Shown here one piece after another: positions 18,974 through 64,000 of a stretch of 64,000 nucleotides of DNA. How positions within the stretch are numbered: the first letter of the stretch is position 1; every line of letters begins with the position of its first letter. The notes under the pieces were generated by a model. That model was not told the origin of the DNA and searched no databases. It was given only the letters and a program-made list of their open reading frames with translations. This DNA is from a virus (taxonomy: Duplodnaviria; Heunggongvirae; Uroviricota; Caudoviricetes). The translations under genes were made by a program, and so were the position numbers. The stretch lies in the IMG/VR virus record IMGVR_UViG_3300037067_005176, positions 125,081-189,080 of that record, one strand, 5' to 3'.

Positions 18974-18988
18974 TATAAATATTTTTAT

Positions 18989-19547: not shown

Positions 19548-19548
19548 A

Positions 19549-25332: not shown

Positions 25333-25372
25333 ACCACATAACTGATAACAAACCACTCGAAAAGGAGTCAAC

Positions 25373-27489: not shown

Positions 27490-27527
27490 TTCGGCTTGTT
27501 TATAAGTTACGACGCAGGAGTGATAAT

Positions 27528-28328: not shown

Positions 28329-28343
28329 ACAAAGAAGGTATAA

Positions 28344-29173: not shown

Positions 29174-29242
29174 ATATAAAATTGTTAATGCAAATGATGA
29201 AACTAAAGTACTTTTTGAAGATGGCTTCGGAAAGGAGATTGA

Positions 29243-29395
29243 ATGAAATGCGGAAAATGTAATATTGGTAAACTTAAATATAATGAGAAAGGTATTTATT
29301 TTTGGTATACTTGTAATAATTGTGATTATGAAACACGCAAAGAAGTAAATACAATAAATAAAAGACTTATAAAAGAGAAAACTTATGGGACGTAA
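29243..29395 (+). CDS. Small zinc-ribbon protein (50 aa; CGKC...CNNCDYE)
   Basis: RBS aaaggag 5 nt upstream. Below the ORF-track cutoff. Same architecture as the - strand zinc-ribbon family. Confidence 0.4.
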   Translation: MKCGKCNIGKLKYNEKGIYFWYTCNNCDYETRKEVNTINKRLIKEKTYGT

Positions 29396-30637: not shown

Positions 30638-30700
30638 CATAAATTTTCACTATAGTTTATTTTTCGTGAAATACCGCGAGAAAAAAAATCATTTTTACCA

Positions 30701-30729
30701 TTGCAAAGTGGTAAAATAGTTTGTATATT
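30701..30729 (+). promoter_or_regulatory. sigma70-like promoter TTGCAA-N17-TATATT within a repeated promoter-leader cassette
   Basis: Near-identical to the cassette at 48069-48192. Confidence 0.5.
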
Positions 30730-30770
30730 GTATCTATCGAAAGGCAACAAACTCCAAAGAGGATACTAAA

Positions 30771-32852: not shown

Positions 32853-32874
32853 TATTTAAAACAAAGGAATGATT

Positions 32875-33996
32875 ATGAATAAGAAATACAAATTAACTAA
32901 AGAGACTATAGTCATTAGTTCATCAACTTTATATAGAATAAAGGCTCTAATTGACATTCCTTCTTCTAATGTTAAAAAAGGTGATCCGGGTGGATTCATT
33001 GAAAATGAATCCAATCTAAGTCATGAAGGTTCTTGCTGGGTCGCTGATAATGCAAGAGTCTTTGGTGATGCATGGGTCTTTGGTGATGCATGGGTCTTTG
33101 GTTCTGCAAGAGTTTATGGTAATGCAGGTGTCTTTGGTAATGCATTGGTCTTTGGTAATGCATTGGTCTTTGGTAATGCAAAGGTCTTTGGTTCTGCAAA
33201 GGTCTCTGATAATGCAAGAGTCTATGATAATGCATGGGTCTATGGTAATGCAAGAGTTTATGGTTCTGCATGGGTCTCTGGTAATGCAAAGGTCTTTGGT
33301 AATACATGGGTCTATGATAATGCAAGAGTTTATGGTAATACAAATGTCTATGATAATGCAAAGGCCTATGGTGATGCATCGGTCTATGGTGATGCAAAGG
33401 TCTATGGTGATGCATTGGTCTATGATAATGTAAAGGTCGCTGATAATGCAAGAGTCTTTGGTGATGCATGGGTCTTTGGTGATGCATGGGTCTTTGGTTC
33501 TGCAAAGGTCTCTGATTCTGCAAGAGTTTATGGTTCTGCAAGAGTCTCTGGTGATGCAAGAGTCTATGGTTCTGCAAAGGTCGCTGGCAATGCAAATGTC
33601 TTTAGTAATGCAAAGGTCGCTGATAATGCATGGGTCTATGGTAATGCAAGAGTCTCTGATAATGCAAGAGTCTTTGGTAATGCAAAGGTCTATGATAATG
33701 CATTGGTCTATGATAATGCAATAGTCTCTGGTTCTGCAAAGGTATATGGTGATGCAAAGGTCTATGATACTGCAAGAATCTATGATAATGCATTGGTCTT
33801 TGGTAATACATGGGTCTATGGTAATGCATTGGTCTCTGATAATGCACCTGCGGTAGCGAAGTATTATATTGATGGTGAACAGGTTTTATTTGAAGTATTT
33901 AAAGAGCGGACTAAAGAACCTGAAAATGAAGTTGTTATGACCATAAAAGAAATTGAACAAAAACTTGGAATACCTAATTTAAAAATTACACGGTAA
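32875..33996 (+). CDS. Hexapeptide-repeat (left-handed beta-helix-like) protein, family copy 1: conserved 55-aa N-module plus about 45 tandem x-V-[FYS]-[GD]-[NDS]-A repeats
   Basis: Protein periodicity of 6 aa, DNA periodicity of 18 bp. N-terminus MNKKYKLTKET..TLYRIKAL..KKGD.GGFIENESNLSHEG.CWV shared with 43431 and 47016. Confidence 0.65.
   Translation: MNKKYKLTKETIVISSSTLYRIKALIDIPSSNVKKGDPGGFIENESNLSHEGSCWVADNARVFGDAWVFGDAWVFGSARVYGNAGVFGNALVFGNALVFGNAKVFGSAKVSDNARVYDNAWVYGNARVYGSAWVSGNAKVFGNTWVYDNARVYGNTNVYDNAKAYGDASVYGDAKVYGDALVYDNVKVADNARVFGDAWVFGDAWVFGSAKVSDSARVYGSARVSGDARVYGSAKVAGNANVFSNAKVADNAWVYGNARVSDNARVFGNAKVYDNALVYDNAIVSGSAKVYGDAKVYDTARIYDNALVFGNTWVYGNALVSDNAPAVAKYYIDGEQVLFEVFKERTKEPENEVVMTIKEIEQKLGIPNLKITR
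33041..33850 (+). repeat. 18-bp tandem coding repeat array (hexapeptide repeats)
   Basis: Units of the form ggtaatgcaaaggtcttt repeated about 45 times with variation. Confidence 0.7.
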
Positions 33997-34147
33997 AGGA
34001 ATATTTCAAACGCAAAATGGAACATTAGTAACTTATGGCTTTTAACTTACATTTTACACAAAGGTGCATTTAACTATTGCACCTTAATTAAATAAGTTGT
34101 ATATTATATTTAGACAGGTACAACTAAACATTAAAGAGGATAAGTCA

Positions 34148-35059
34148 ATGAAAAAGATAGCCTTAACAATTCTGCTCTTAGCCTTGATAGGATGCAGTTC
34201 GCCATCATCAATAAATGGTGCAACAGAATATTCGTCTCAAGAAACTATGTTGTCATCCCAAGAAGAATACTCTTCTTCTATTGTTGACTTATCCTCTTCA
34301 TCCTCCTCTGATAGCACTCCACAATATTCCTCTTCGGATATTGTTGCAACCATAAGTTCTTCAATCGTTACAATTCAATCAAGTTCATCTATTGTAAGAA
34401 GCAGTAGTTCGTTGATTGCATTAAGTTCTTCAACTGTGTTACCTTCTTCAAGCAGTAGTTCGTTGATTGCATTAAGTTCTTCAACTGTGTTACCTTCTTC
34501 AAGCAGTATCGCCGTATCATCAAGTTCAATAATTGAACCGTCGTCTTCAAGCATTGCAAGTTCTTCTTCACTTGCACAAAGTAGCTCTTCTTATAAGACT
34601 GCTATTTATATGTTTGATCTTGCCTATGCATCAGGAGTAGAGTTTTATAAGACTCATGGAACAAGCACCTCTCCTGATTATGAAATAATCGGTAATGTTA
34701 TTAAAGGGTACGAACATTATTATGGGCTTGATACATTGGTTGTAGGTGAATTAATCGAATCTCTCAACATTGAACGCAGAAGAATGAATACTGCGTCCTC
34801 TTGGGTTAAAGATTTGACATCAGGTGAAATTATATCCGTTGTGTCGGGTGTTATAAATTTACAAGGAACGCCTTTCGTTGCAAGCGCTGTTCATACAGTA
34901 AATAACAAAAGCGTATTTGTTTTAAAGAGAACTAATTGGGGTGATGAAGTATGTTTTTGGTATGACACTAATTCATTGAAGTGGATAGGATCAGGAACGC
35001 AAGCAAGCGATACTAATTTTCAAAATGTATGTGGTAATATAAACGATTATAGTTTTTAG
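34148..35059 (+). CDS. Lipoprotein (lipobox LIGC) with Ser-rich low-complexity region containing an exact 52-bp tandem duplication
   Basis: MKKIALTILLLALIGCSS. 34409-34460 is duplicated at 34461-34512. Confidence 0.55.
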   Translation: MKKIALTILLLALIGCSSPSSINGATEYSSQETMLSSQEEYSSSIVDLSSSSSSDSTPQYSSSDIVATISSSIVTIQSSSSIVRSSSSLIALSSSTVLPSSSSSSLIALSSSTVLPSSSSIAVSSSSIIEPSSSSIASSSSLAQSSSSYKTAIYMFDLAYASGVEFYKTHGTSTSPDYEIIGNVIKGYEHYYGLDTLVVGELIESLNIERRRMNTASSWVKDLTSGEIISVVSGVINLQGTPFVASAVHTVNNKSVFVLKRTNWGDEVCFWYDTNSLKWIGSGTQASDTNFQNVCGNINDYSF

Positions 35060-35072: not shown

Positions 35073-35465
35073 ATGAATTATGGATTTGATTATCACGGCG
35101 TGTTGAATCTTGAAAGTGATAAATTTAGAAATATTGCGGCACAGTTAGTTTCAGAAGGACATGAAGTCCATGTGATGACTGGGTCCACCGAAAAGTATTG
35201 GTTAGAAGAATCTAAAGATTTGCTTGAAAAAGGAATTCATTATACACACTTCTTTAGTGTTGCGGATTATCTTAAAGATTTAGGAATTCCAAGTGGCGGC
35301 ACATACGATAGTCCTCGTTATGAAGATGATCGTTGGAATTCTGCAAAAGGTGAATATGCTTTTTATATTGGACTTATTGAACATACTGATGATTGTAGTA
35401 AATATCAGGAACATTTTCCAAAGTCCTGCAAATTCAATCTTGTGATTAATGGAGAGATTATATGA
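35073..35465 (+). CDS. Hypothetical protein (130 aa)
   Basis: ORF with RBS gtgagga. Confidence 0.45.
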   Translation: MNYGFDYHGVLNLESDKFRNIAAQLVSEGHEVHVMTGSTEKYWLEESKDLLEKGIHYTHFFSVADYLKDLGIPSGGTYDSPRYEDDRWNSAKGEYAFYIGLIEHTDDCSKYQEHFPKSCKFNLVINGEII

Positions 35466-35959
35466 GTATGAAGTTTTCAGAATATGCAAAAGATGTAATG
35501 GGGAAAATTTCCGCGGCATGTTTATTGTACAGAGAAGATCGCGGCCCAAGAGAATATTTTATTGTTCATCCGGGTGGTCCTTATTATACTAACAAATGGA
35601 AAGGTTATTGGAGCATTCCAAAAGGTATGGCTGAAAACGACGAAGACTTGAAGATCGCTGCTCGTAGAGAGTTGAAAGAAGAAACTGGTTTAGTGCCTGA
35701 TGGATTTTTAACTGATCTTGGCACTACAGTTTTGAACTCTGGGAAAATCATTCATGCGTTTCTTGCTAAAGGCAGTGGTGAATGGCAAGGCTCTAATACT
35801 TTTGAAATGGAATGGCCACCTAAGTCAGGGAAGAAAGAGAAGTTCCCTGAAATTGACTCGGGCGAATGGTACAATGCTGAAGCCTGCAAAGAGATGTTAG
35901 GAATCAATCAAACTATTTTCATAGACCGAGCTGAGAAGATTCTAGACAAGGTCAAATAA
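35462..35959 (+). CDS. Nudix hydrolase
   Basis: Nudix box G(x5)E(x7)REL.EETG (GMAENDEDLKIAARRELKEETGL). Confidence 0.65.
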   Translation: MSMKFSEYAKDVMGKISAACLLYREDRGPREYFIVHPGGPYYTNKWKGYWSIPKGMAENDEDLKIAARRELKEETGLVPDGFLTDLGTTVLNSGKIIHAFLAKGSGEWQGSNTFEMEWPPKSGKKEKFPEIDSGEWYNAEACKEMLGINQTIFIDRAEKILDKVK

Positions 35960-40022: not shown

Positions 40023-40166
40023 GCTTATAGGCTTTTAAATTTCAGAAAAAACATTGATTATCAAAAAACCAATGTTTTTATGTAGAAAAAAGTTCATTTT
40101 TGCCATTGCCGAATTGTAAAAATGTTTTTAAATTGAATCAATGATTTTGAAAAATAGAATCGATTT

Positions 40167-43430: not shown

Positions 43431-44162
43431 ATGAAAAAGAAATATGAATTAACCAAAGAGACCATTATTGTTGGTTCATCAACTCTATATAAAATCAAAG
43501 CTCTGATTGACATTCCTTCTAAAGATATTAAAAAAGGTGATCTAGGTGGATTCATTGAAAATGAATCCAATCTAAGTCATGAAAATACTTGCTGGGTCTA
43601 TGATAATGCATTGGTCTCTGGTTCTGCAAGAGTCTCTGGTAATGCAGGTGTCTCTGGTGATGCATCGGTCTCTGGTAATGCAAAGGTCTATGGTGATGCA
43701 TGGGTCTCTGGTAATGCAGAGGTCTTTGGTAATGCAAAGGTCTTTGGTAATGCAAAGGTCTATGGTGATGCAAAGGTCTATGATGATGCAAGAGTTTATG
43801 GTAATGCAGAGGTCTTTGGTTATGCAAATGTCTTTGGTAATGCAAATGTCTTTGGTAATGCATGGGTCTTTGGTAATGTATGGGTCTCTGATTCTGCAAG
43901 AGTCTCTGGTGATGCAGTTGTCTTTGATTCTGTAAAGGTCTATGGTAATGCAAAGGTCTATGGTAATGCAAAGGTCTATGGTAATGCAAGAGTTTATGGT
44001 TCTGCAAGAGTCTCTGGTAATACAAATGTCTATGGTGATGCAGGTGTCTTTGGTAATGCATTGGTCTATGGTAATGCAAAGGTCTTTGGTAATGCAAAGG
44101 TCTTTGGTAATGCAAAGGTCTATGATAAATTCACATTAACTGATGATGAAATTTTATGCTGA
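43431..44162 (+). CDS. Hexapeptide-repeat protein, family copy 2 (about 30 repeats; C-terminus ..YDKFTLTDDEILC)
   Basis: Same N-module and repeat type as 32875..33996. Confidence 0.65.
   Translation: MKKKYELTKETIIVGSSTLYKIKALIDIPSKDIKKGDLGGFIENESNLSHENTCWVYDNALVSGSARVSGNAGVSGDASVSGNAKVYGDAWVSGNAEVFGNAKVFGNAKVYGDAKVYDDARVYGNAEVFGYANVFGNANVFGNAWVFGNVWVSDSARVSGDAVVFDSVKVYGNAKVYGNAKVYGNARVYGSARVSGNTNVYGDAGVFGNALVYGNAKVFGNAKVFGNAKVYDKFTLTDDEILC
43600..44130 (+). repeat. 18-bp tandem coding repeat array
   Basis: ggtaatgcaaaggtctat-type units. Confidence 0.7.
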
Positions 44163-45984: not shown

Positions 45985-47019
45985 ATGAATGAAAAAAAAG
46001 AAAAGACATATTGTGTTTATGTTGGACGCTTTCAGCCTTGCCACTTGGCACATGTGAAGACAATTCAAAATGCTTTAGCGATCGCTGATGAAGTTTGTAT
46101 TATCATCGGCTCTTATCGCCAAACTCCTACGGTGAAAAACCCATGGACGTTTGATATGCGAGAGAAGATGATTCGCGCTTGCTTCAGCATTCAAGACAAT
46201 GAACGAATCAAAGTGGCTCCTATGCGAGACTATCTTTACAACGATAATACTTGGATCACTTCCATGTATGACATCATTGCAAAGATGACAAACAATTCCG
46301 AGAATGTTCAAATCATTGGACATAAAAAGGATAAGTCCACCGAGTATCTTGAATTCTTTCCATCCTGGACTTGGGTCCCTCAACCAAATTTCGACAACAT
46401 CAATGCAACAGACATCCGCATGGATTTGTTTACTCACTGTATGGTGAAAGAAACATCCGGCACTGTGCATCCTGAAGTTGTAAAACTTATTCACAATTGG
46501 AAAGCAGGCAACGAGCTCTTTACGAATCTTGTTGCTGAATTTGAATTTGTGAAGAAGTATCGTGAATCTTGGAAGGTTGCACCATATCCTCCAACATTTG
46601 TTACATCTGATGCAGTATGTGTCAAGTCTGGGCATGTGTTGGTAATCAAGAGAGGTATGAATCCTGGTAAAGGGCTCTTTGCTCTCCCAGGTGGATTTGT
46701 AAATCAAAATGAAGATGTTCGTACAGCATCTATCCGCGAGCTTCGAGAAGAGACTGGAAAATGGATGAGCGTTGATGATCTTGATGAAAAGATTGTTGCA
46801 GAACATGTCTTTGATCATCCTAAACGCGATCCTCGTGGTCGTTGCATTACACATGCGTTTTTGTTCAAGCTTAATGATAAAGGACCTCTTCCTTTAGTTA
46901 AGGCTGACGATGATGCAAGCGATGCAATTTGGATGCCGTTCTCTGATGTGATTGCAAGTGAAGAAAGCTTCTATGCTGATCATGCGCATATAATTTGTTA
47001 TTTTGTTAATAAGCTATGA
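45985..47019 (+). CDS. Bifunctional NMN adenylyltransferase / Nudix hydrolase (NadM-Nudix, NatV-like)
   Basis: N-terminal GRFQPCHLAH (HxGH-type NMNAT motif) and C-terminal Nudix box SIRELREETGKW. RBS aaaggaagag upstream of ATG 45985; the ORF-track start 45775 overlaps the upstream gene. Confidence 0.65.
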   Translation: MNEKKEKTYCVYVGRFQPCHLAHVKTIQNALAIADEVCIIIGSYRQTPTVKNPWTFDMREKMIRACFSIQDNERIKVAPMRDYLYNDNTWITSMYDIIAKMTNNSENVQIIGHKKDKSTEYLEFFPSWTWVPQPNFDNINATDIRMDLFTHCMVKETSGTVHPEVVKLIHNWKAGNELFTNLVAEFEFVKKYRESWKVAPYPPTFVTSDAVCVKSGHVLVIKRGMNPGKGLFALPGGFVNQNEDVRTASIRELREETGKWMSVDDLDEKIVAEHVFDHPKRDPRGRCITHAFLFKLNDKGPLPLVKADDDASDAIWMPFSDVIASEESFYADHAHIICYFVNKL

Positions 47020-47201
47020 ATAAGAAATACAAATTAACCAAAGAGACCATTATTGTTGATTCATCAACTCTATATAGAATAAAGGCTCTAAACGACATTC
47101 CTTCTTCTAATGTTAAAAAAGGTGATCTAGGTGGATTCATTGAAAATGAATCCAATCTAAGTCATGAAGGTTCTTGCTGGGTCGATCGCGATGTTTATTA
47201 A
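47016..47201 (+). pseudogene. Truncated hexapeptide-repeat gene: conserved N-module only (61 aa), repeat array deleted
   Basis: MNKKYKLTKETIIVDSSTLYRIKALNDIPSSNVKKGDLGGFIENESNLSHEGSCWV then stop. Confidence 0.55.
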
Positions 47202-47954: not shown

Positions 47955-47992
47955 AGACCTCTCAAAAGTGATTTTGAGAGGTCTTTCTGTTT
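47955..47992 (+). terminator. Rho-independent terminator (13-bp stem agacctctcaaaa GTGA ttttgagaggtct + T-rich)
   Basis: Long perfect stem. Confidence 0.65.
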
Positions 47993-48133
47993 CCATTGTA
48001 TCAATACCAAGAAAATTTTGTTCCAAAGCCACAAAGCTTTAAAATGACAAAGAAAGTATAGTGCTTTTTAATGAAATTTTCACTATAGTTCATTTAAAGC
48101 ATAAAACCGGAAGAAAAAAGTTCATTATAACCA

Positions 48134-48162
48134 TTGCAAGCGGATGAAATAGTTTGTATATT
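48134..48162 (+). promoter_or_regulatory. sigma70-like promoter TTGCAA-N17-TATATT in the second copy of the repeated promoter-leader cassette
   Basis: 48069-48192 closely matches 30641-30770. Confidence 0.5.
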
Positions 48163-48192
48163 GTATCTATCAAACGGAACAAAGGATATACA

Positions 48193-48291
48193 ATGAAACA
48201 CATGACCGCAAAAGAGTTGCGTACAAAGCCAAATTTGATTGCAAAATTCATGTTGATTCAAATGAAGAAGAGGATATCTTTCATTAATTAA
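48193..48291 (+). CDS. Very small ORF (32 aa) at the position equivalent to gene 30771 downstream of the repeated cassette
   Basis: RBS aaagga 6 nt upstream. Confidence 0.3.
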   Translation: MKHMTAKELRTKPNLIAKFMLIQMKKRISFIN

Positions 48292-48308
48292 TTTATGATA
48301 AAATTATT

Positions 48309-49574
48309 ATGGCAGATTTAAAATCTAATTGCGACAAATTGAACAATAATGAGTTTAATATGCGAATGCTTGAACTTGGTAAAGAATTGCTTCATGATAT
48401 TGTAAAAGCAAATTATGAAGCATATATCGTTGGCGGTACTGTAAGAGATATCGCAATGGGCCATGATGACATTCATGATGTTGACATTGCAACTAATATG
48501 CCGATTGAAATTATCAAAAATACCTACAAGACTGTTGAATATGGTGGTGGTGAAAAGCACGGTACTATTATTGTAGTTTACAAAGGTTATTCATTTGAGT
48601 TGACACAATTTAGATGTGATGGATTTTATACTGATGGACGACGTCCTGATGATGTAACATTCGTTGAAGACTTCAAGACGGATTGTTCTCGCAGAGATTT
48701 TACAATCAATGCAATGGGAATGAATACTTTTGGAAGCATTGTAGACTTCTTTAATGGAATGTCAGATATTCAATTAGGTATAATCAAAACAGTAGGCAAT
48801 GCTCACGACAGGTTCAATGAAGATGCATTGAGAATGATTCGTGCTTGCAGATTTGCTGGTCGTTTTAACTTTAAGATTGAAGATGATACCATTGAAGCAA
48901 TAAAATCAAATAAACATCTTATATCAAATGTTTCTAAAGAACGTATACTTGATGAAATTAAAAAAGCAAGTTCTTATGGCGGAATCGCCTTTGCGAAGTT
49001 CATTACATACATGTACACAACGGGACTTCTTGATCTTATTATATGCATTAAGTTATCAAGTAAAAATTTTAAAGAAATAATAAGTGCCTTAGAATATAAC
49101 GACTCAAAAGACTTCAACACAAATCTTGTAATTCTTTTATTTGAATGCGATGAAAGTGTTAAAGACGATTTGAAACTTTCAAATGAAAATTTGGAAGTTA
49201 TTAAGTTTGTAAATGATAATTACAGTTCTTATTCTTTACTTAATCAAATGTCAAGAATAAAAGCATATGAAATATGCTCTCATAAGCATTTCAAAGTCTT
49301 AAGAGCGTGTTATATTGCATTTGAAAAACATTGTGAGTTACAAGACACTATGGTTTCTTATGTCTTGGAATACAAAGACGCATATGATCAGCAATCAATC
49401 ATCAGTGACGAGATGCTTAAAACTGTTAAGCCAAGTAAAGCATTTGGATTTATGAAAAGAGAGATGTTAGAATCTCACTTACATGAATTTGAAATGACTA
49501 AAAAGTTGAAAAGCGAAGATAAGATTCGTATATGGGTTGATGAATGGCTACAAGAAGATAAAATTTTTGGATGA
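48309..49574 (+). CDS. cca: CCA-adding enzyme / tRNA nucleotidyltransferase (class II Pol-beta NTase with C-terminal HD-like region)
   Basis: GGTVRD...DVDIAT...RRDFTINAM motifs. Confidence 0.6.
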   Translation: MADLKSNCDKLNNNEFNMRMLELGKELLHDIVKANYEAYIVGGTVRDIAMGHDDIHDVDIATNMPIEIIKNTYKTVEYGGGEKHGTIIVVYKGYSFELTQFRCDGFYTDGRRPDDVTFVEDFKTDCSRRDFTINAMGMNTFGSIVDFFNGMSDIQLGIIKTVGNAHDRFNEDALRMIRACRFAGRFNFKIEDDTIEAIKSNKHLISNVSKERILDEIKKASSYGGIAFAKFITYMYTTGLLDLIICIKLSSKNFKEIISALEYNDSKDFNTNLVILLFECDESVKDDLKLSNENLEVIKFVNDNYSSYSLLNQMSRIKAYEICSHKHFKVLRACYIAFEKHCELQDTMVSYVLEYKDAYDQQSIISDEMLKTVKPSKAFGFMKREMLESHLHEFEMTKKLKSEDKIRIWVDEWLQEDKIFG

Positions 49575-49583
49575 GGAGTTTAT

Positions 49584-49823
49584 GTGTTAGTAAAATTCAA
49601 AAAAGCAAATGTTTCTCAAGCACAGATAAATTGGGGAGGTCATAACGACCCTCGCGGTGTGCTTGAAGTTGGAAAGGAATATGAAATTGCTTATGCTGAT
49701 GTACGATCATCGCATACAAAGATATTCTTGAAGGACTTCCCAATGATAGCGTTCAATTCAGTTTGGTTCACTTGGTCGGAAACTGACGATATTTTTGAAC
49801 TTCCTGGCATAAATCGGTCGTAA
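49584..49823 (+). CDS. Hypothetical protein (79 aa)
   Basis: RBS gaggag. Confidence 0.45.
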   Translation: MLVKFKKANVSQAQINWGGHNDPRGVLEVGKEYEIAYADVRSSHTKIFLKDFPMIAFNSVWFTWSETDDIFELPGINRS

Positions 49824-49912
49824 AGAATTTGAATACAGAAAAAGTAATGTTATTCAAGTTATAGATTTCGTTGATAATTATAAAGATGCACAAGCATATG
49901 TTTAACCGTTAA

Positions 49913-50380
49913 ATGCATATGAAAATAGACACAAACATAAATACAAAACATTGTGATTTACAATCATTAAGAACACCTAAAATTTCTGATGTTCCTGATT
50001 TTATTCATTGTCCTTACTTTGTTACTGGTAGTGTGAAATTTGGATGTGCAAAGCGGAGCAGTGATTTGGATATTGCAATTCCTATTAACTACAAAAGTAG
50101 CATTTTCAAAAGTAAATATTTTCCATCTGAATATAATGCAGGATTCAAATTTATGCACAACGGCATTTGCCTAAATATTATTCCATTACACCCTTTGGAT
50201 TATGTTGCTTGGAATCATGCATCAAAAATTATTTGTACGCTTGGCCTGTTTATTAACCCAATGCCTTTATCAAAATATAAGCGTTATTCTTTACATGAAA
50301 TGTATATAGCAGCATCAAAAATGGCTATTGGCCAATATAATATTGATTTTGAAAATTATGAAGAGTTTTTAAAATTTTAA
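49913..50380 (+). CDS. Minimal nucleotidyltransferase (Pol-beta superfamily; GSVKFGCAKRSSDLDIAI)
   Basis: GS-x9-DxD NTase signature. Confidence 0.45.
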   Translation: MHMKIDTNINTKHCDLQSLRTPKISDVPDFIHCPYFVTGSVKFGCAKRSSDLDIAIPINYKSSIFKSKYFPSEYNAGFKFMHNGICLNIIPLHPLDYVAWNHASKIICTLGLFINPMPLSKYKRYSLHEMYIAASKMAIGQYNIDFENYEEFLKF

Positions 50381-50599
50381 ATCTGAGGAAGTATTCAATT
50401 GAATATAAAATCAAAGCAATAAATTATTAAAGTAAAGGAATACTATGATTGAATTGTTCAAAAGAAATAGATTTGTTCAATGGCCGTTTGTCATTATATG
50501 TCTTTCTTATTCCTGTATGTGTTGTTATAATCGCAGGAGTTGCGATTACATGGTCGTTTCATAAGTTAGGTGATTAAGATTAAAATATGAGGAAAGAAA

Positions 50600-51760
50600 A
50601 TGATTGAATTACAAGGTAAGTATAATACCGCAAAGGTATTTACTGATAATTTGGATGAAGGAAGTACTTCACAAATTATAAAGATGATGAATCATCAAGT
50701 TTTTAAAGATTCGTCTGTTCGTATAATGCCCGATTGCCATTTAGGAAAGGGTTCGGTAATTGGATTTACTGCATCGCTAACAGACAAAGTAATTCCTAAT
50801 GTGATTGGCGTTGATATTGGCTGTTCCATTAGTATTGGAAAAATTGAATCCAAAAAACCATGGACATTTGAAACTCTTGATAAGATTATTCGCGGTCACA
50901 TTCCATTTGGAACTAATACGCATTCAAGCCAAGTAAAAATCTTAAAGAATTCAAATTCAAAGCTTGGGGTGATTTTTAATTCAATTGAAAGCGACGTTGA
51001 AAAAATTTCAAAGAAGATCGGTATTGATGTTGATCGCATAAAGTGTTCAATTGGGTCTCTTGGTTCTGGTAACCACTTTATTGAAATTGATACAAACTCC
51101 AATGATGAAAAATATTTAGCATTACATTCAGGTTCAAGAAACTTTGGATTGCAGGTTGCGAATTATCATCAAAAGAAAGCAATCAATTTTATTGAAAAAT
51201 CCCAAGGAACACTTGACGGTTCAGCAAAAGAACTTGCATGGCTTGAAGGAACTGATGCTGAAGAATATTACAAAGATATGAAGACTGCGCAAATTTATGC
51301 GTCGTTGAATCGTTTAACGATGCAGCATATTATATGTTCCGAAATGAATTGGAATATTGATGAAAGTAATTACATTGAAAGCATTCATAATTATATTGAT
51401 TTTGATGCAAAGATGATTAGAAAAGGCGCAATCTCTGCGCAGAAAGATGAAATGGTTGTTGTTCCAATTTCAATGGGCGATGGAATTATTATCGGACGAG
51501 GTCTTGGAAACAAAGACTGGAATTTCAGTTGTGCGCATGGAGCAGGAAGAATTTATTCAAGATCAAAAGCGAAAGAACTTTTATCAATGGATGAGTTTAA
51601 GCAGCGTATGAATGGAATTTGGTCTTCATGTATTTCAACTTCCACATTGGATGAAAGTCCTATGTCATATAAGTCTTTGGATTATATTGTTGAATATGTA
51701 AAGCCGACCATCGAAGTTGTTGAAATCATTAAACCTGTGTACAACTTTAAGGCTAATTGA
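50600..51760 (+). CDS. rtcB: RtcB-family RNA ligase (3'-phosphate/5'-hydroxyl)
   Basis: MPDCHLGKGSVIG, GVDIGC, GSGNHFIEI, AHGAGR motifs. Confidence 0.7.
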   Translation: MIELQGKYNTAKVFTDNLDEGSTSQIIKMMNHQVFKDSSVRIMPDCHLGKGSVIGFTASLTDKVIPNVIGVDIGCSISIGKIESKKPWTFETLDKIIRGHIPFGTNTHSSQVKILKNSNSKLGVIFNSIESDVEKISKKIGIDVDRIKCSIGSLGSGNHFIEIDTNSNDEKYLALHSGSRNFGLQVANYHQKKAINFIEKSQGTLDGSAKELAWLEGTDAEEYYKDMKTAQIYASLNRLTMQHIICSEMNWNIDESNYIESIHNYIDFDAKMIRKGAISAQKDEMVVVPISMGDGIIIGRGLGNKDWNFSCAHGAGRIYSRSKAKELLSMDEFKQRMNGIWSSCISTSTLDESPMSYKSLDYIVEYVKPTIEVVEIIKPVYNFKAN

Positions 51761-51829
51761 TGAAGCTTTGTTTGAAATGTCAGAAGCCTGTCTTACAATT
51801 TTTAGACAGGCTTCTGTAATTCGTATAGA

Positions 51830-52363
51830 GATAAAAGCGGTGTAAATAATCCTTTCTTTGGTAAGACTCATAGCATTGAAACAATTGATGCAATGAAAAT
51901 AAAATGCAGAATAAAATCAAAAGAACTTTGGTTAAAAGATGATTACAGAAGCAAAGTGATTGAAAGATCTTCAAAGCCAAGACATAAAGATTTTAAAACA
52001 GATCAAAGTAAAAGCACAAAGAAATATTATAATGAACACCAAGAACAAAAAGTCATTCGTTCAATTAAAATGAAAAAACGTTGGCTTTCAGGTGAAATGA
52101 ATGGTATCGTTAAAAAGGAAAGTCTTGCTGAAAAGGAAATGTTCAACGCATTAAAGCTTTTGTTTGTCGATGTTGAAAAGAAACTGATTATTATAAATGA
52201 AAAGGCTTATGTTCCTGATTGTATATGCTTTGGAAATACAATCATAGAATATTATGGTGATTGTTGGCACGCTAATCTAAATAAGTATAAAAAGAATGAT
52301 ATAGTGCATAGTAATAAAACTGCTGAAAAGACTCAAAAGTTACTTGAAGGCAAACAATCGTAA
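51830..52363 (+). pseudogene. Homing-endonuclease-related fragment: NUMOD3 motif (NPFFGKTHS) plus C-terminal nuclease-like domain (PDCI...IEYYGDCWH), no N-terminal catalytic domain
   Basis: Frame open from 51830 without start. The ORF track begins at an internal Met 51893. Confidence 0.4.
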
Positions 52364-52391: not shown

Positions 52392-52418
52392 AAAGGCGAT
52401 CGTATTGACCGCCTTTTT
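52392..52418 (+). terminator. Rho-independent terminator closing the rightward gene block
   Basis: aaaggcg...cgccttt + T5. Confidence 0.55.
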
Positions 52419-53872: not shown

Positions 53873-54292
53873 TTACCCGTTCAAGATTTCCTTAAGAATA
53901 GTTGAAGCAATCTTCATATCCATTCCTTCATGAGATTTGAATTCACCCATGAACTTTCCAACAGGTGTACCATGACCAAGACGATCAACAGCTTCTTCAA
54001 CGATTGCGCGAATGGCAATCTCATGTAAAGACTTTGGTCTGAAATTGTCAAGCACAGAAATCAAATGAACTGACTCGGAATAATCAACGCCTTTGTCTTT
54101 GCACATTGCGATTGTTTCTTCGGCATTCTTTGCCATCTTTTGAACGACAGTAACAATCACATCATCAGCAGTGCCTTTGATATCTTTGATTCTGTCAACT
54201 TCTCCAAGCAACACAGTAAGAACACCTTTAAGAGCCTCGTCCTTAGCTTTCATTGCAGTCATTCTCATTTCTTTAATCCTTTCGTAAATCAT
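53873..54292 (-). CDS. GatB/YqeY-domain protein
   Basis: MIYERIKEMRMTAMKAKDEALKGVLTVLLGEVDR... matches the YqeY pattern (MKAKD...L..L...I). Confidence 0.5.
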   Translation of the reverse strand: MIYERIKEMRMTAMKAKDEALKGVLTVLLGEVDRIKDIKGTADDVIVTVVQKMAKNAEETIAMCKDKGVDYSESVHLISVLDNFRPKSLHEIAIRAIVEEAVDRLGHGTPVGKFMGEFKSHEGMDMKIASTILKEILNG

Positions 54293-54301: not shown

Positions 54302-54568
54302 TTAATCGTAATACGATTCTCTATATGTGTATGTAGTTGCAAACTTTTTAATATAAACGTAGTGCAGTTGAGTGTTGTTCCATGCATCTAAAGAATTCTT
54401 TCTTAATGTTATAACTACAGGATAACACTTAGGACAACCGAACACATCAATAAGTTGCTTATCAGGTGACTTATCCCATCCGCATTTGTAAACTTTAGCA
54501 ATGAAGGCTTTGAATTCATCAAAGTTGTTTATCAACACGCCGTTTGATTCTTGGTTATCTTTAATCAT
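54302..54568 (-). CDS. Hypothetical protein (88 aa)
   Basis: ATGA-coupled to queC. Confidence 0.4.
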   Translation of the reverse strand: MIKDNQESNGVLINNFDEFKAFIAKVYKCGWDKSPDKQLIDVFGCPKCYPVVITLRKNSLDAWNNTQLHYVYIKKFATTYTYRESYYD

Positions 54569-55287
54569 GAGTGTACCGGATCAAGATCTTTAAGTTGTTC
54601 AACCGGTTCATCAACACATTTCAATACTTCGCATTCATAATCAAACTTACAATCATACACAAGATTTGCAAATTGAAATGAACCATTTCTGTTTCTCTTA
54701 TGGATATCCATCATCGTTAATGCGTCCTCATAAGTTCTACAAGGAACGCATTCACCACATCGTCCTGTTGCGATATTTCTATTAGGATATTCGCAGAAGT
54801 GAGTCAACTTATCCAATCCCCATTCTTGAATCGTTGCAACTATTTGTTCTTTAGTTGAAAATCGTAATGGAAAACTAAATTTGATATTCTTGTCGCCCAT
54901 AACTTTAAGCATGAGATCGGATGCTTTGAGCATATTATGTTGATGAGCAAAGAAGTCATCACCCTTATGATATCCCATGTGATAAGTTGTTTCGTCTTCA
55001 CCAAATATAGAAAGCATGGTGATCATGGCAGGCTGTTGAAACATACCTCCATTATAACCTTTAAGTCCATTTGTTATTGGGAAGTCAAGCTTAACCTTTT
55101 GAACATCAATCTCTTTCTTTAAATAACGCATAATATCAAATCTTGCGCGTTCTTCAAACTCTTTCTTGAGAATTCCAAAGTTATCAGTTTCAAACACAAT
55201 AGCATTCACTTTTACGCCTTTATTTACAAGATCGCAAAGAATCAAAGTTGAATCCATTCCACCTGACCAAACTACAGTATGCTTCAT
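54565..55287 (-). CDS. queC: QueC-like 7-cyano-7-deazaguanine synthase (PP-loop ATP pyrophosphatase)
   Basis: VVWSGGMDST PP-loop and C-terminal CGxCxxCxxR zinc motif (CGECVPCRTY). RBS gaggt upstream of ATG 55287. Confidence 0.6.
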   Translation of the reverse strand: MKHTVVWSGGMDSTLILCDLVNKGVKVNAIVFETDNFGILKKEFEERARFDIMRYLKKEIDVQKVKLDFPITNGLKGYNGGMFQQPAMITMLSIFGEDETTYHMGYHKGDDFFAHQHNMLKASDLMLKVMGDKNIKFSFPLRFSTKEQIVATIQEWGLDKLTHFCEYPNRNIATGRCGECVPCRTYEDALTMMDIHKRNRNGSFQFANLVYDCKFDYECEVLKCVDEPVEQLKDLDPVHS

Positions 55288-55443
55288 ATTACCTCGGGAT
55301 TTATGCAAACTTATAAAAAGTATTATGCATCAGTTTAATAAATATAACAAAAATGTAACGATTATGAATTTAAATTCGAAAAATAATTTTTATGCTTATA
55401 TAAGATCGCAGGATTCAATCACAGCCAAAGCTGGAACTCCATA

Positions 55444-62628: not shown

Positions 62629-62916
62629 CTATTCACCTTTATATTGATAAAGTATTGCGTTGCATAATGAATGTACGGCTCCTATTGTCATGCCAGTATT
62701 GTGATCATGATGGAGATGTATTAGATGTCTGAAGAATCCTATTGGGAATAAATCATTATTGATTGGAAGCTTTGTAATGTCTCCTGTGGGTTTTTTGTTT
62801 AATGGTTGACCACAAGCCCAGCATAAACCTTTTTGTTCGTTTGTATATTGCTCCCTTGCTTCCTTTCTTTGTTTGAAGGTTGCGTCATCATATTTTATTG
62901 GGAGATTCAATATCAT
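62629..62916 (-). CDS. Endonuclease VII-family His-Me finger nuclease (CWACG...HLHHDHNTG..GAVHSLCNAIL)
   Basis: Recombination endonuclease VII motif CxxC...HxDHDHxTG...LC..CN. Confidence 0.55.
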   Translation of the reverse strand: MILNLPIKYDDATFKQRKEAREQYTNEQKGLCWACGQPLNKKPTGDITKLPINNDLFPIGFFRHLIHLHHDHNTGMTIGAVHSLCNAILYQYKGE

Positions 62917-63115: not shown

Positions 63116-63556
63116 TTACCAACAATCTCTATAATACATTGTTTTTGATTTACCAAAGAACTCAGCATTCCCTTTTATAGTTTCAAGAGCAGGTCCTTTT
63201 GGTAACTTCTCCCCTTTGATTTTGACATTTCCACAGTCTGTAGAAGCATCACCAGTGAGATCTCCATTGATTGTAATATTTCCACAATCGTTAGTAACAT
63301 TTCCGTATACTGAAGCGTTTATTGTGATGTTACCACTGTCTACAGCTACTAATTCGACATGTTCAGCGTTCACAATCACTTCAGTAACACAAAATTTTGT
63401 ATCTTTATTAAGTGTCAACTCAACGTCATCAACAAAGATCTTTCCATTGCAAATTGATATGTTACTGGAAGTAACATAAATCGACTTATCATTACCTAAT
63501 AGTCGATTTATGAATTTCTTAATATGTTTAACAACTTCAGCATAAAATTTCATCAT
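63116..63556 (-). CDS. Bactofilin-like beta-helical repeat protein (GNITINASVYGNVTNDCGNITINGDLTGDA), translationally coupled to the hexapeptide-repeat gene
   Basis: Starts MMKFYAE overlapping the hexapeptide gene stop exactly as at 44143. Repetitive G-N-[IV]-T-I-N segments. Confidence 0.4.
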   Translation of the reverse strand: MMKFYAEVVKHIKKFINRLLGNDKSIYVTSSNISICNGKIFVDDVELTLNKDTKFCVTEVIVNAEHVELVAVDSGNITINASVYGNVTNDCGNITINGDLTGDASTDCGNVKIKGEKLPKGPALETIKGNAEFFGKSKTMYYRDCW

Positions 63557-64000
63557 CAGTTAATGTAAATTTATCAATCTTTGCAGAACCATAGACTCTT
63601 GCAGAACCATAAACTCTTGCATTACCATAGACCCATGCATTATCATAGATTCTTGCAGTATCATAGACCTTTGCATCACCATATACATTTGCAGAACCAG
63701 AGACTATTGCATTACCAGAGACCTTTGCATCACCATAGACCTTTGCATTATCATAGACCTCTGCATTATCATAGACCGATGCATTGCCAAAGATCCTTGC
63801 ATTACCAGAGACCCATGCATTACCATAGACCCATGTATTATCATAGACTCTTGCATTATCAGAGACCGATGCATCACCAAAGATCCATACAGAACCAGAG
63901 ACCTCTGCATTATCATAAACTCTTGCATAATCAAAGACCTTTGCATCACCAAAGATCCATACAGAACCAGAGACCTCTGCATTATCATAGACCAATGCAT
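63537..64000 (-). CDS. Hexapeptide-repeat protein, family copy 3 (inverted orientation; 3' part only, gene continues beyond window end)
   Basis: C-terminus ..KIDKFTLTDDEILC identical in type to copy 2. 18-bp repeats. Confidence 0.6.
   Translation of the reverse strand, partial: ALVYDNAEVSGSVWIFGDAKVFDYARVYDNAEVSGSVWIFGDASVSDNARVYDNTWVYGNAWVSGNARIFGNASVYDNAEVYDNAKVYGDAKVSGNAIVSGSANVYGDAKVYDTARIYDNAWVYGNARVYGSARVYGSAKIDKFTLTDDEILC
63600..64000 (-). repeat. 18-bp tandem coding repeat array (inverted relative to arrays at 33.0-33.9 kb and 43.6-44.1 kb)
   Basis: accatagacYYttgcattacc-type units. Confidence 0.7.

Follow-up and report, generated by a model that had tools for sequence, protein, structure and literature searches.

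A putative RNA end-repair gene set with a conserved nucleotidyltransferase–RtcB pair in a large T4-like phage

Do neighboring genes for a CCA-adding enzyme, a small nucleotidyltransferase (NTase), and the RNA ligase RtcB form one module for tRNA repair? We addressed this question in a 64,000-nt stretch of phage DNA (hereafter, the window) from a contig of 189 kb, slightly below the usual jumbo size, in which T4-like backbone genes were detected (RegA, a GroES/gp31-like protein, DenV, and Seg-like endonucleases). A preliminary description of this DNA had proposed such a three-gene module. All three ORFs were found on the + strand, and the ORF list bore out the coordinates given for them there. 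The locus comprises the following features:

47955–47984, + strand: intrinsic-terminator-like hairpin from a terminator scan (13-bp stem, then TTTCTGTTT), closing the preceding unit
48074–48192, + strand: promoter-leader cassette (A-tract, −35 TTGCAA, 17-nt spacer, TG-extended −10 TATATT, and 5′ leader with a Shine-Dalgarno sequence)
48193–48291, + strand: candidate 32-aa leader ORF (MKHMTAKE...), read from the sequence behind the Shine-Dalgarno of the cassette
48309–49574, + strand: class II CCA-adding enzyme (tRNA nucleotidyltransferase), 421 aa (Pfam, PHROG, PDB 1miv)
49584–49823, + strand: 79-aa protein with no assigned function (homologues in the related genomes L004, L011, and L013)
49913–50380, + strand: stand-alone Pol-β-fold NTase of an uncurated family, 155 aa (motif, fold, relatives)
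50449–50577, + strand: candidate 42-aa transmembrane ORF (ORF list, sequence)
50600–51760, + strand: RtcB 3′-phosphate/5′-hydroxyl RNA ligase, short phage type, 386 aa (Pfam, PHROG, catalytic residues)
51760–52363, + strand: decayed homing-endonuclease gene (zinc finger, NUMOD3, PD-(D/E)xK-like nuclease; comparison with L013)
51781–51818, + strand: perfect 13-bp hairpin without a U-tract, beginning 20 nt past the rtcB stop codon
52392–52416, + strand: terminator-like hairpin and T-run (sequence), the likely end of the + strand unit
53873–54292, − strand: YqeY/GatB-like domain protein (Pfam YqeY, 3.3e-12)

The cluster is bounded by the terminator at 47955–47984 and the terminator-like hairpin at 52392–52416, and the genes between them share one strand. 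The upstream hairpin has a predicted folding energy of −19.5 kcal/mol (z = −4.45), and none of 200 shuffled sequences folded equally well. The terminator signal at the downstream end is weak, because that hairpin reaches only −10 kcal/mol (z = −1.59). Both ORF strand and GC skew switch at about 52.5 kb, where the + strand unit converges on − strand genes. The hairpin at 51781–51818 (−24.2 kcal/mol, z = −5.75; 0 of 200 shuffles folded equally well) arose by local inverted duplication and sits where the endonuclease gene is disrupted near its 5′ end; it is a possible 3′-end stabilizer or processing site.

The repeated promoter-leader cassette that had been noted ahead of the cluster proved to be real. 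The window contains four copies of its core motif (GAAAAAANNTCAN6CCATTG and then TTGCAA-17-TATATT), where chance would give 0.31; one of them, at 48113–48162, lies directly upstream of the repair cluster. The −35 (48134–48139) and −10 (48157–48162) elements of this copy were also listed by a promoter scan, and the cassette is 80% identical to positions 30641–30744 across 104 nt. The cassette is kept in L004, L011, and L013 as well, where it comes after the homologue of the 79-aa protein; in the window, it precedes the CCA gene. Gene content on both sides of the cassette varies between related genomes, which places it at indel or rearrangement junctions. The leader ORF behind it may be the remnant of a gene that the cassette drives in relatives.

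As judged from family and motifs, the product of 48309–49574 is a CCA-adding enzyme. It matched the Pfam PolyA_pol head (PF01743; E = 4.8e-29, 101.7 bits against a cut-off of 23), the PolyA_pol_RNAbd neck (PF12627; 1.4e-10, above the cut-off), and phrog_2244, "tRNA nucleotidyltransferase" (5.2e-56). The top solved relative was the CCA-adding enzyme of B. stearothermophilus (1miv, E = 7.6e-50), to which the head and neck align over 213 residues. Class II motifs A (GGxVRD...DxD), B (RRD), C, and D (EDxxR) are all present in this alignment, which is free of gaps across GGxVRD/DxD, the flexible loop, RRDFTINAM, and EDALRMxRAxRF. The flexible loop between motifs A and B is required for terminal A addition and is lost in CC-adding enzymes; in the window enzyme, this loop (FRCDGFYTDGRRPDDVTF) pairs without gaps with that of 1miv (FKTDGDYEDYRRPESVTF). 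The enzyme differs from 1miv in its divergent C-terminal body and tail (residues ~240–421), which are conserved among phage relatives only. Matches to CCA enzymes ranged from 1e-50 to 1e-31, as against ~1e-21 for poly(A) polymerases and A-adding enzymes; such scores by themselves are no proof of CCA specificity. GG[TA]VRD, D[VI]DIAT, RRDFTIN, and ED.LR..RA.RFA are kept in all eight phage relatives compared, with G42, G43, V45, R46, D47, D57, D59, R128–N134, E171, D172, and R175 invariant, and relatives at 58–70% identity retain every motif. The true start codon is probably at 48360 or 48366, since relatives begin at M18 or M20 of the ORF.

The product of 50600–51760 is likewise, by its sequence, an RtcB RNA ligase with intact catalytic residues. 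It matched PF01139 at 2.6e-58 (198.7 bits against a cut-off of 27) over profile positions 13–425 of 426, and phrog_1075 at 3.1e-125. Residues D72 and C75 (GVDIGC), N158 and H159 (GNHF), H176 (HSGSR), H263 (HNY), and H313 (HGAGR), which we take to be the metal ligands and the guanylylated histidine, align with RtcB from P. horikoshii (1uc2) and human (9i8v) and are invariant among four phage RtcBs. Its identity to the RtcBs encoded by phages of Clostridioides, Bacillus, and Staphylococcus is 43–46%.

The 155-aa NTase itself had no Pfam (E ≤ 0.01) or PHROG match. Among its 119 relatives, 56 matched PF01909 NTP_transf_2 (best 7.1e-7) and 26 matched PF18765. The signature hG[GS]-x9-13-Dh[DE]h is present as F-V-T-G39-S40-x10-D51-L-D53-I, with D51 conserved in 119/119 relatives, G and D53 in 118, and S in 115, and the protein is predicted to have the Pol-β NTase fold. 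At the position expected for the third carboxylate, which was derived from the predicted secondary structure rather than from model coordinates, Asn88 (predicted strand 85–92) is conserved in every one of the 119. No further Asp or Glu at positions 30–135 reaches 90% conservation among these relatives, and Asp96 is kept as D/E only among eight close ones. The family has no curated profile, and all of its 233 cluster representatives were detected in metagenomic or viral contigs; distant homologues are located among DNA-replication genes. We considered whether the protein is RlaP (PF10127) and rejected this assignment: the query had no PF10127 match, and only 7 of the 119 relatives matched weakly (best 1.2e-5). 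RlaP proteins are roughly 100 aa longer. Thus, the family assignments and catalytic motifs first read from the letters hold for all three proteins, by Pfam and PHROG profile searches for the CCA enzyme and RtcB, and by motif and relatives for the NTase.

One element of this gene set is new, namely the conserved pairing of RtcB with the 155-aa NTase. The NTase-to-RtcB adjacency is kept in every close relative with visible downstream DNA. The NTase gene lies 12–219 nt upstream of rtcB in the window and L008, in L023, in L024 and L025, and in an ERZ22666135 contig, and it is directly upstream of rtcB in three independent relatives at 57–70% NTase identity. Alignment with L023 and L024 showed that ~180 nt of extra DNA between the two genes in the window, which holds the 42-aa transmembrane ORF, is missing in relatives; this ORF was not called as a gene in L008. 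At 80 other phage RtcB loci, neither an NTase of this family nor a CCA enzyme was found within 4 kb. RtcB and the NTase cannot share one RNA end without a phosphatase step, because RtcB needs a 3′-phosphate and the NTase a 3′-OH. The NTase could instead act outside RNA repair, by nucleotidylating a protein, modifying a small molecule, or modifying RtcB or another partner. For instance, it could mimic the MNT antitoxin, which AMPylates and silences HEPN RNase toxins. We consider such a role improbable.

The conserved pairing does not include the CCA gene, which is a movable cassette and not a conserved neighbor of rtcB. Of two relatives with identical flanks around this site, L011 has the gene and L004 does not; in L011, RtcB was not found within 5 kb downstream of it. 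In L013, it lies 7.5 kb from rtcB on the opposite strand, and the block from rtcB to the YqeY homologue, which is located between them, is inverted relative to it. Homologues of the 79-aa protein (76–88% identical; no Pfam match for the window protein) are encoded right behind the CCA enzyme in both L011 and L013, and one occurs in L004 without the CCA gene. More distant CCA homologues adjoin HAD_SAK_1 and Nudix genes; the name HAD_SAK_1 derives from an RNA-repair context. Of the proposed three-gene module, the NTase–RtcB pair therefore stands, and the CCA gene, gained or lost and located elsewhere in relatives, does not. The endonuclease gene was considered as a repair component and rejected as a decayed homing endonuclease. 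In the window, this gene is frameshifted and interrupted by a stop codon, and the C-terminus that it encodes is truncated; the L013 copy, which abuts rtcB, is intact (238 aa) and has weak Pfam matches to NUMOD3, I-TevI_ZnF, and MTES_1575.

The gain, loss, and inversion described above, the homing endonuclease next to rtcB, and the 80 RtcB loci with no CCA gene nearby are what would be expected if the CCA gene, the NTase–RtcB pair, and the endonuclease were independent pieces of accessory cargo that cassette shuffling had made neighbors only incidentally. The position of the promoter cassette points the same way. PeSL promoter/stem-loop cassettes of T4-like phages lie at indel junctions between related genomes (PMC2839356, PMC4122927), and the cassette here resembles them in layout, being a short conserved regulatory unit repeated in variable regions at such junctions. 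It differs in that an adjoining stem-loop is clear only in the 40-kb copy, where it is directly attached; the 48-kb copy has a terminator ~130 nt upstream. However, the NTase–RtcB pair is clearly conserved, CCA and rtcB are still within ~8 kb of each other in L013, with YqeY between, and phage pCD1602_4 independently has RtcB and CCA genes 1.5 kb apart. Cooperation would also be possible without a conserved operon. We regard incidental adjacency as a serious but somewhat unlikely account of the whole cluster.

The YqeY protein recurs as a neighbor of CCA, RtcB, and the NTase family: its homologue in L013 is 93% identical, and in L017–L019 it is encoded two genes upstream of the NTase homologue. 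It is possibly a tRNA-binding accessory. Tentatively, we suggest that the 155-aa NTase represents an undescribed minimal Pol-β family that is a dedicated RtcB partner in a T4-like clade. It might be an RlaP analogue independent of PF10127 and form with RtcB, and possibly the YqeY protein, a two- or three-protein device for repairing tRNAs from which host tRNases have removed nucleotides.

Three further RNA-repair genes, claimed in the preliminary description as a kinase/ligase pair and an Rnl-like protein, were confirmed elsewhere in the window by Pfam, PHROG, and PDB matches:

18996–19547, + strand: P-loop polynucleotide-kinase-like protein (Pfam AAA_33, 2.4e-11; phrog_505 "polynucleotide kinase," 2.9e-12)
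19546–20454, + strand: divergent ATP-dependent RNA-ligase-like protein of 5′-P/3′-OH chemistry (fold and motifs)
29385–30380, + strand: Rnl5/NgrRnl-type RNA ligase with an N-terminal OB domain and KCEG as motif I (Pfam, PHROG, PDB)

The top PDB matches of the kinase were 4gp7 (E = 9.5e-5), presumably the CthPnkp kinase domain, and PSTK. In the divergent ligase, motifs IV and V and the lysine of motif I (KxDG) are present within an adenylyltransferase fold. The Rnl5-type ligase matched PHA02142 OB (2.6e-24) and RNA_ligase (4e-21) in Pfam, phrog_968 (7.2e-69), and PDB 5cot (1.5e-52). Because these family assignments and catalytic motifs hold, the genome does encode, as had been proposed, both 5′-P/3′-OH and 3′-P/5′-OH sealing chemistries together with a CCA-adding enzyme.

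What we observed directly are the families to which the enzymes belong, their intact active-site residues, the signals for promoter and terminator, and the NTase–RtcB adjacency. We lean toward an early-expressed gene set for the repair of RNA ends, mainly of tRNA, lying in a hyperplastic part of the genome of this large T4-like phage. From these observations, we infer the substrates, co-transcription, cooperation of the enzymes, and a counter-defense purpose. The sigma-70-type cassette promoter at 48113–48162 would drive a single unit ending near 52416, in the order CCA-adding enzyme, 79-aa protein, 155-aa NTase, RtcB, and dead homing endonuclease. RtcB would directly reseal RNAs with a 2′,3′-cyclic phosphate or 3′-phosphate and a 5′-OH, ends that are left by metal-independent host tRNases such as PrrC, RloC, or colicin-type anticodon nucleases. 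The CCA enzyme would restore trimmed or missing 3′-CCA on host tRNAs, and on phage tRNAs if there are any. The small NTase would most likely act like RlaP, adding one or two nucleotides to damaged RNA 3′-OH ends and so restoring the repaired RNA. With the kinase-like protein and divergent ligase (19–20.5 kb) and the Rnl5 ligase (29.4 kb), both types of broken end would be sealable.

A counter-defense role is plausible on this reading of the genes. The same genes could serve as housekeeping for phage translation, with the CCA enzyme maturing CCA-less phage tRNAs and RtcB providing general RNA maintenance or processing, so that translation of a low-GC phage is boosted. The host's own CCA enzyme normally carries out CCA addition, which counts against this account, as does the presence of RtcB, three RNA ligases, and a polynucleotide kinase together in a single genome, for which it gives no reason. 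In its favor, L015, which has a 41%-identical CCA enzyme, carries 10 tRNA genes 6–10 kb downstream, none of which encodes CCA; the authors of the RaK2 report proposed maturation of phage tRNAs as the role of its CCA enzyme (PMC3622015), and jumbo phages with RNA-repair genes usually have many tRNAs (PMC7824862). Here, neither tRNA genes nor a host tRNase were visible within the 64-kb window, and the contigs of close relatives also had no tRNA gene. We judge this housekeeping account rather unlikely. The housekeeping and counter-defense roles are not mutually exclusive.

Much current work concerns the host defenses that cleave tRNA (PrrC, RloC, HEPN toxins, and others) and the ways in which phages respond. 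For such work, the locus is a compact test case, with a catalytically intact RtcB, a tightly linked tiny NTase unnamed in databases, and a CCA gene gained or lost between sister phages. The preliminary view that the combination is not a commonly described phage module was overstated. In jumbo phages, Iyer, Anantharaman, Krishnan, Burroughs & Aravind (2021) described RtcB, Rnl1/Rnl2, PNK, phosphoesterases, ligase-associated Pol-β NTases, and the CCA enzyme, interpreted this repertoire as a counter to tRNA-cleaving defenses, and reported RtcB with two ATP-dependent ligases in BcepSaruman and BcepSauron (PMC7824862). RaK2 was reported in 2013 to have a CCA enzyme, PNK, and RNA ligase (PMC3622015). 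Because the concept and the list of enzyme types were already published, our finding as a whole is a confirmation and extension rather than a new kind.

The jumbo-phage repertoire shares with this genome its component list and its proposed purpose, the reversal of host attack on tRNA. In contrast, the NTase here belongs to a much smaller uncurated family and is not RlaP, and the ATP-dependent ligases are an Rnl5-like and a divergent form instead of Rnl1/Rnl2.

A further precedent is the large Clostridioides phage pCD1602_4 (CP069348), in which the genes for RtcB and a CCA enzyme share a strand and lie within 3 kb of each other. Its order (RtcB, a 299-aa DHH-like protein, and a 507-aa CCA enzyme) is the reverse of that in the window. 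The intervening gene resembles, by motif reading, a DHH/DHHA1 phosphoesterase and not the small NTase, and the longer CCA enzyme has an HD domain read from the sequence of this unannotated record.

Pnkp and Rnl1 of T4 repair PrrC-cleaved tRNA-Lys, and to our knowledge they are almost the only phage RNA-repair enzymes studied experimentally. The window likewise comes from a T4-like phage with tRNA healing and sealing enzymes, including the kinase-ligase pair at 19–20.5 kb. It differs in encoding RtcB, which seals 3′-P/5′-OH ends directly, without a healing step; as far as we know, T4 has neither RtcB nor a CCA enzyme.

The closest parallel to the NTase–RtcB pair is RlaP, known from rtcB-rlaP-rtcA operons of Pseudomonas and as T4 NrdC.11, a Pol-β NTase that is encoded between rtcB and rtcA and adds 1–2 nt to damaged RNA 3′-OH ends (PMC12776372). 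The window NTase differs in lacking a PF10127 match and in its invariant Asn at the expected third acidic position, and its cluster has no RtcA by Pfam or PHROG. Its gene likewise adjoins rtcB, and by analogy it may carry out the same short addition. If the small NTase does work with RtcB, the idea of a ligase-associated NTase, which has so far rested on RlaP, would come to cover a second family, and an easily studied enzyme of 155 residues would become available.

The three plus-strand ORFs that the preliminary description had grouped as a second tRNA-repair module at 48309-51760 lie exactly where it placed them. Profile searches confirmed its CCA-adding enzyme and its RtcB ligase, both with their catalytic motifs or residues. 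The region contains the following features.

47955-47984, plus strand: terminator-like hairpin closing the preceding unit (dG -19.5 kcal/mol, z -4.45)
25282-25335, 30680-30733, 40085-40138 and 48113-48166: four copies of a promoter-leader cassette, by core motif
48309-49574, plus strand: class II CCA-adding enzyme, 421 aa (Pfam, phrog_2244, 1miv)
49584-49823, plus strand: ORF79, an uncharacterised 79-aa protein
49913-50380, plus strand: small Pol-beta nucleotidyltransferase (NTase), 155 aa (motif, fold model, transitive Pfam matches)
50600-51760, plus strand: RtcB RNA ligase, 386 aa (Pfam, phrog_1075, catalytic residues)
51760-52363, plus strand: decayed homing-endonuclease gene abutting the rtcB stop codon (intact homologue in the related contig L013)
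52392-52416, plus strand: weaker hairpin with a T-run, likely end of the unit

The 421-aa ORF matched the Pfam PolyA_pol head (4.8e-29) and PolyA_pol_RNAbd (1.4e-10) domains, both over the curated cut-offs, and phrog_2244, annotated 'tRNA nucleotidyltransferase' (5.2e-56). Its closest solved structure is the CCA-adding enzyme of B. stearothermophilus (1miv, E = 7.6e-50), and the alignment is free of gaps across GGTVRD...DVD, the flexible loop FRCDGFYTDGRRPDDVTF, RRDFTINAM and EDALRMIRACRF. A-adding enzymes and poly(A) polymerases scored about 28 orders of magnitude more poorly than 1miv. All motifs are kept in seven metagenomic relatives (44-70% identity). Because these relatives begin at M18 or M20 of the window ORF, the actual start of the gene is probably 48360 or 48366.

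The RtcB ORF matched Pfam across the entire profile (2.6e-58) and phrog_1075 (3.1e-125). Residues D72, C75, N158, H159, H176, H263 and H313 match the metal ligands and guanylylated histidine of archaeal and human RtcB and are identical in the four phage RtcBs compared. RtcBs encoded by phages of Clostridioides, Bacillus and Staphylococcus (43-46% identity) are its nearest annotated relatives.

The 155-aa ORF matched nothing in Pfam or PHROGs, and a word-indexed search returned only eight relatives. The GS..DLD motif by which it had been recognised as a Pol-beta NTase is nonetheless conserved: F-V-T-G-S-x10-D-L-D-I is invariant among close relatives, and G39, S40, S50, D51 and D53 are each kept in 115-119 of 119 relatives. 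These 119 proteins include 56 with matches to PF01909 (NTP_transf_2), 26 to PF18765 (Polbeta) and 7 to PF10127 (RlaP). A profile search of 1.84 billion representatives yielded 233 proteins at E <= 0.001, nearly all of them stand-alone and 130-190 aa long, and the AlphaFold2 model of the window protein is confident (pLDDT 85.6, pTM 0.79). From these relationships, we accept the protein as a predicted small Pol-beta nucleotidyltransferase that falls outside every curated family. Its active-site pattern is unusual. Asn88 is present in 119 of 119 relatives, on the beta-strand where a third carboxylate would be expected, and apart from the motif aspartates no acidic residue reaches 90% conservation in the alignment. 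By profile (PF10127), it is not an RlaP.

A different substrate for this NTase, either a protein or a small molecule, is a rival reading; it might, for instance, act like an MNT antitoxin. An MNT antitoxin was the only match of the NTase profile in the PDB, at a non-significant E of 0.95, and the BFVD fold search gave nothing beyond uncharacterised phage proteins. A locus search with A2, a close alignment of NTase relatives, found one IMG/VR locus and, in GTDB genomes, no member of the family. Because this search was pattern-limited, the absence from cellular genomes is only suggestive of a family confined to the metagenomic and viral contigs in which it was found.

To place the cluster among its relatives, we compared metagenomic contigs carrying homologues with all window ORFs by tblastn; no near-identical DNA was present among 50,697 phage records. 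Contig L008, from a second sample, carries an identical copy of the three-gene cluster. The NTase and RtcB genes are paired more widely. The L023 NTase has 69% identity, with an RtcB N-terminus (87% identity) beginning 63 nt downstream; the spacing is 12 nt in L024 and L025, whose NTase is 57% identical. An ERZ22666135 contig carries an NTase gene at 196-699, followed by a full 386-aa PF01139 protein at 711-1871. The only other close NTase homologues are on L004 and L005, contigs that stop right past the NTase gene. Distant NTase homologues (38-46% identity) do not adjoin RtcB: one lies among genes for a YqeJ-type exonuclease, a primase-helicase, a DNA methylase and PolA, and another lies two genes past a YqeY-domain gene.

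The CCA gene behaves differently. With ORF79 behind it, it is conserved as a unit in L011 and L013 as well as in the window. The entire RtcB-to-YqeY block is flipped with respect to the CCA gene in L013, so that CCA and RtcB are 7.5 kb apart on opposite strands, and L011 has no RtcB in the 5 kb downstream of CCA. In L004, the homologue of window ORF 62629-62916 directly adjoins the ORF79 homologue, and the CCA gene between them is missing. L011 (1658-3526) and L004 (1484-2008) share these two flanks (homologues of 62629-62916 and 49584-49823) and differ by a clean single-gene indel. Among 80 IMG/VR phage loci with RtcB 40-47% identical, many from one sample and probably redundant, the 4-kb flanks contained no member of the NTase family and no CCA enzyme. 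Together with the synteny of the relatives, this result indicates that the tight three-gene cluster is particular to this phage.

Collectively, these searches and comparisons establish the enzyme identities and the gene linkage. They support the proposed module only in part: the genes lie within the interval, but on the alignments the sole evolutionarily maintained unit is NTase-RtcB, and the comparison shows clearly that the CCA gene behaves as a cassette gained and lost within this clade. An incidental adjacency, in which cassette shuffling put the CCA gene beside NTase-RtcB, is a rival to a shared function for the three genes.

A YqeY/GatB-like domain protein (53873-54292, minus strand, in the window; 5507-5923 in L013; 4934-5371 in L017) recurs, across three different phage lineages, in the neighbourhood of the genes for CCA, RtcB and the small NTase. 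A role as tRNA-binding accessory to the repair gene set is possible.

The repeated promoter-leader cassette that the preliminary description had reported ahead of the cluster is real. It lies about 130 nt downstream of the terminator-like hairpin at 47955-47984 and consists of an A-tract, CCATTGCAA, a 17-nt spacer, tTGTATATT and a leader with a Shine-Dalgarno sequence; it is also seen as an A-tract, CCATTGC, a 17-nt spacer, TGTATATT and a leader with AAGAGGA. Four copies of the core motif were counted in the window versus 0.31 expected by chance, and the 48-kb and 30-kb copies are 80% identical over 104 nt. The cassette is conserved almost base for base in L004 (~2034-2120), L011 (~3551-3637) and L013 (2939-3049), where it sits at junctions at which gene content differs. 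Every gene from 48193 to 52363 is on the plus strand, and a strand switch at ~52.5 kb, with the hairpin at 52392-52416, marks the end of the unit. The cassette, the shared strand and the bracketing hairpins make a single early-type transcription unit plausible. In gene content the window looks T4-like, with RegA, a GroES/gp31-like protein, DenV and several endonucleases of Seg-like, GIY-YIG or HNH type. PeSL elements have been reported at such junctions in the hyperplastic regions of T4-like phages (PMC2839356, PMC4122927), and the window cassette resembles them in its position.

Between the NTase gene and rtcB, the window has about 180 nt of extra DNA (within 50381-50599) that is missing in L023 and L024. 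It opens with ATGATTGAATT, the same 11 nt as the start of rtcB, and could encode a 42-aa transmembrane peptide. A perfect 13-bp hairpin without a U-tract (51781-51818; dG -24.2 kcal/mol, z -5.75) lies 20 nt past the rtcB stop codon and arises from a local inverted duplication in the decayed endonuclease gene. In L013 the homologue (9462-10178, minus strand) is intact and also abuts rtcB; its 238-aa product combines a PD-(D/E)xK-like nuclease with a CxxC...CxxC zinc finger and a NUMOD3 motif. In the window, the gene is interrupted by a frameshift and a stop codon, and its C-terminus is truncated. The 156-aa ORF of this copy (51893-52363) was considered as an RtcB cofactor such as archease and rejected: it had no Pfam match at E <= 0.01 and is part of the broken homing endonuclease.

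Further RNA-repair genes are encoded elsewhere in the window.

18996-19547, plus strand: P-loop kinase (AAA_33, 2.4e-11; phrog_505 'polynucleotide kinase', 2.9e-12)
19546-20454, plus strand: RNA-ligase-like ORF overlapping the kinase (K-x-D-G, E-G-x-V, motif V lysine)
29385-30380, plus strand: Rnl5/NgrRnl-type ligase (5cot, E = 1.5e-52; N-terminal OB domain)
13623-14174 and 27528-28328: metallophosphoesterases, candidates for 3'-end healing

The best solved matches of the kinase are a 171-aa chain, 4gp7 (E = 9.5e-5), and L-seryl-tRNA(Sec) kinase. We take 4gp7, deposited under the molecule name 'Metallophosphoesterase', to be the kinase domain of C. thermocellum Pnkp. The overlapping ORF has an RNA_ligase score under the Pfam cut-off, several of its homologues carry PF09414, and its K-x-D-G, E-G-x-V and motif V lysine are invariant in the alignment. 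Motif I of the third protein is KCEG rather than KxDG, an Asp-to-Glu change beside the adenylylated lysine that may or may not affect activity. Since the kinase, the two ligases, RtcB and the CCA enzyme are all real, the genome has genes for both sealing chemistries and for restoring CCA, as had been proposed from the kinase/ligase pair at 19-20 kb, the Rnl-like protein at 29385 and the cluster. RlaP, Pth, Thg1 and 2H phosphoesterase were absent from the ~65 ORFs scanned with Pfam, a set that covers a minority of the ORFs under 100 aa and many, though not all, of the larger ORFs. The 29385 ligase ends a plus-strand run (26962-30380) encoding a circularly permuted YpsA SLOG protein, a calcineurin-like metallophosphoesterase, an NT5C-type 5'-nucleotidase, a 124-aa uncharacterised protein and the ligase itself; this may be a heal-and-seal or nucleotide-signal-degrading group.

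Metal-independent tRNases leave 2',3'-cyclic phosphate and 5'-OH ends. A difficulty for joint action is that RtcB requires a 3'-phosphate and an NTase a 3'-OH, so each would have to take a separate end or come in at a separate step. We lean slightly towards an early-expressed RNA-end repair set, in which RtcB would reseal tRNAs cut by such enzymes, the CCA enzyme would restore tRNA 3' ends, and the small NTase, as the conserved partner of RtcB, would put back lost nucleotides in the style reported for RlaP (PMC12776372). For the substrates, the cooperation of the enzymes and a counter-defence purpose, we infer from established family knowledge and from Iyer et al. 2021 (PMC7824862). Alternatively, the CCA enzyme may chiefly mature phage tRNAs. 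The unrelated phage contig L015, whose CCA enzyme is 41% identical, has ten tRNA genes (Pro, Asn, Arg, Glu; 16816-21172) 6-10 kb downstream of the CCA gene, and none of the ten encodes CCA. However, tRNA and Rfam scans covering the 64-kb window, out of a 189-kb genome, found no tRNA gene, no Rfam family at gathering score, and no tRNA-like or riboswitch element accounting for the intergenic gaps.

Several other loci deserve mention. An NMN-adenylyltransferase-Nudix fusion (45985-47019, plus strand; phrog_395, 4.4e-71) and a separate Nudix protein (35462-35959, plus strand) are encoded; in large phages, such fusions have been tied to the salvage of NAD+ and to counteracting defences that deplete it (PMC7824862). 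A TnpB/OrfB_IS605-like protein with a Cas12f-like TNB domain (22913-23614, plus strand) is apparently truncated at 233 aa, and L015 has a full-length copy (426 aa, 51% identical); the GC skew reverses nearby, at 24-26 kb. Beta-solenoid paralogues of YdcK or bactofilin type, with 18-nt (6-aa) repeats and a common N-terminus, MNKKYKLTKE..., are at 32869-33996, 43431-44162 and 47016-47201 (plus strand) and 63537-64000 (minus strand), the third being a fragment of 61 aa immediately ahead of the cluster. A QueC-like protein on the convergent strand (54565-55308, minus; partial match to PF06508, 1.8e-10) could be related to 7-deazaguanine modification of tRNA or DNA. The ORF at 34097-35059 contains a perfect 51-nt tandem duplication (34399-34500).

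The combination had been described as not a commonly described phage module. This did not hold, as both the repertoire and its interpretation are published. Iyer et al. 2021 reported RtcB, Rnl1/Rnl2, polynucleotide kinases, phosphoesterases, a ligase-associated RlaP NTase, a CCA-adding enzyme, Thg1 and peptidyl-tRNA hydrolase in jumbo phages, some with RtcB plus two ATP-dependent ligases, and read the set as repair of tRNA damage by the host (PMC7824862). A CCA enzyme, PNK and RNA ligase were noted in RaK2 in 2013 (PMC3622015). Homologues of RtcB and the CCA enzyme occur in 667 and 460 phage records, respectively. Three phages failed as precedents for the RtcB-CCA linkage: phiCD211, a relative of pCD1602_4, has a peptidyl-tRNA hydrolase 1.1 kb upstream and no CCA enzyme in its annotated surroundings, and the CCA genes of Myrna and CcrColossus do not adjoin RtcB (in CcrColossus, a gene annotated as tRNA-His guanylyltransferase is ~6 kb away). 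HAD_SAK_1 and Nudix genes come after the CCA gene in the more distant phages L015 and L016; there, the CCA gene also lies beside split terminase genes, one of which carries a LAGLIDADG domain in L016. The concept is therefore already published, and what is new here is modest: the conserved pairing of RtcB with a very small NTase family that has no database name and an unusual active-site pattern, and the evidence for gain and loss of the CCA gene in this clade. A known arrangement close to this one is that of Clostridioides phage pCD1602_4, which has RtcB, a DHH-like protein (by motif reading) and a CCA enzyme consecutively; RtcB is near the CCA enzyme as in the window, with the DHH-like gene rather than a small NTase between them.
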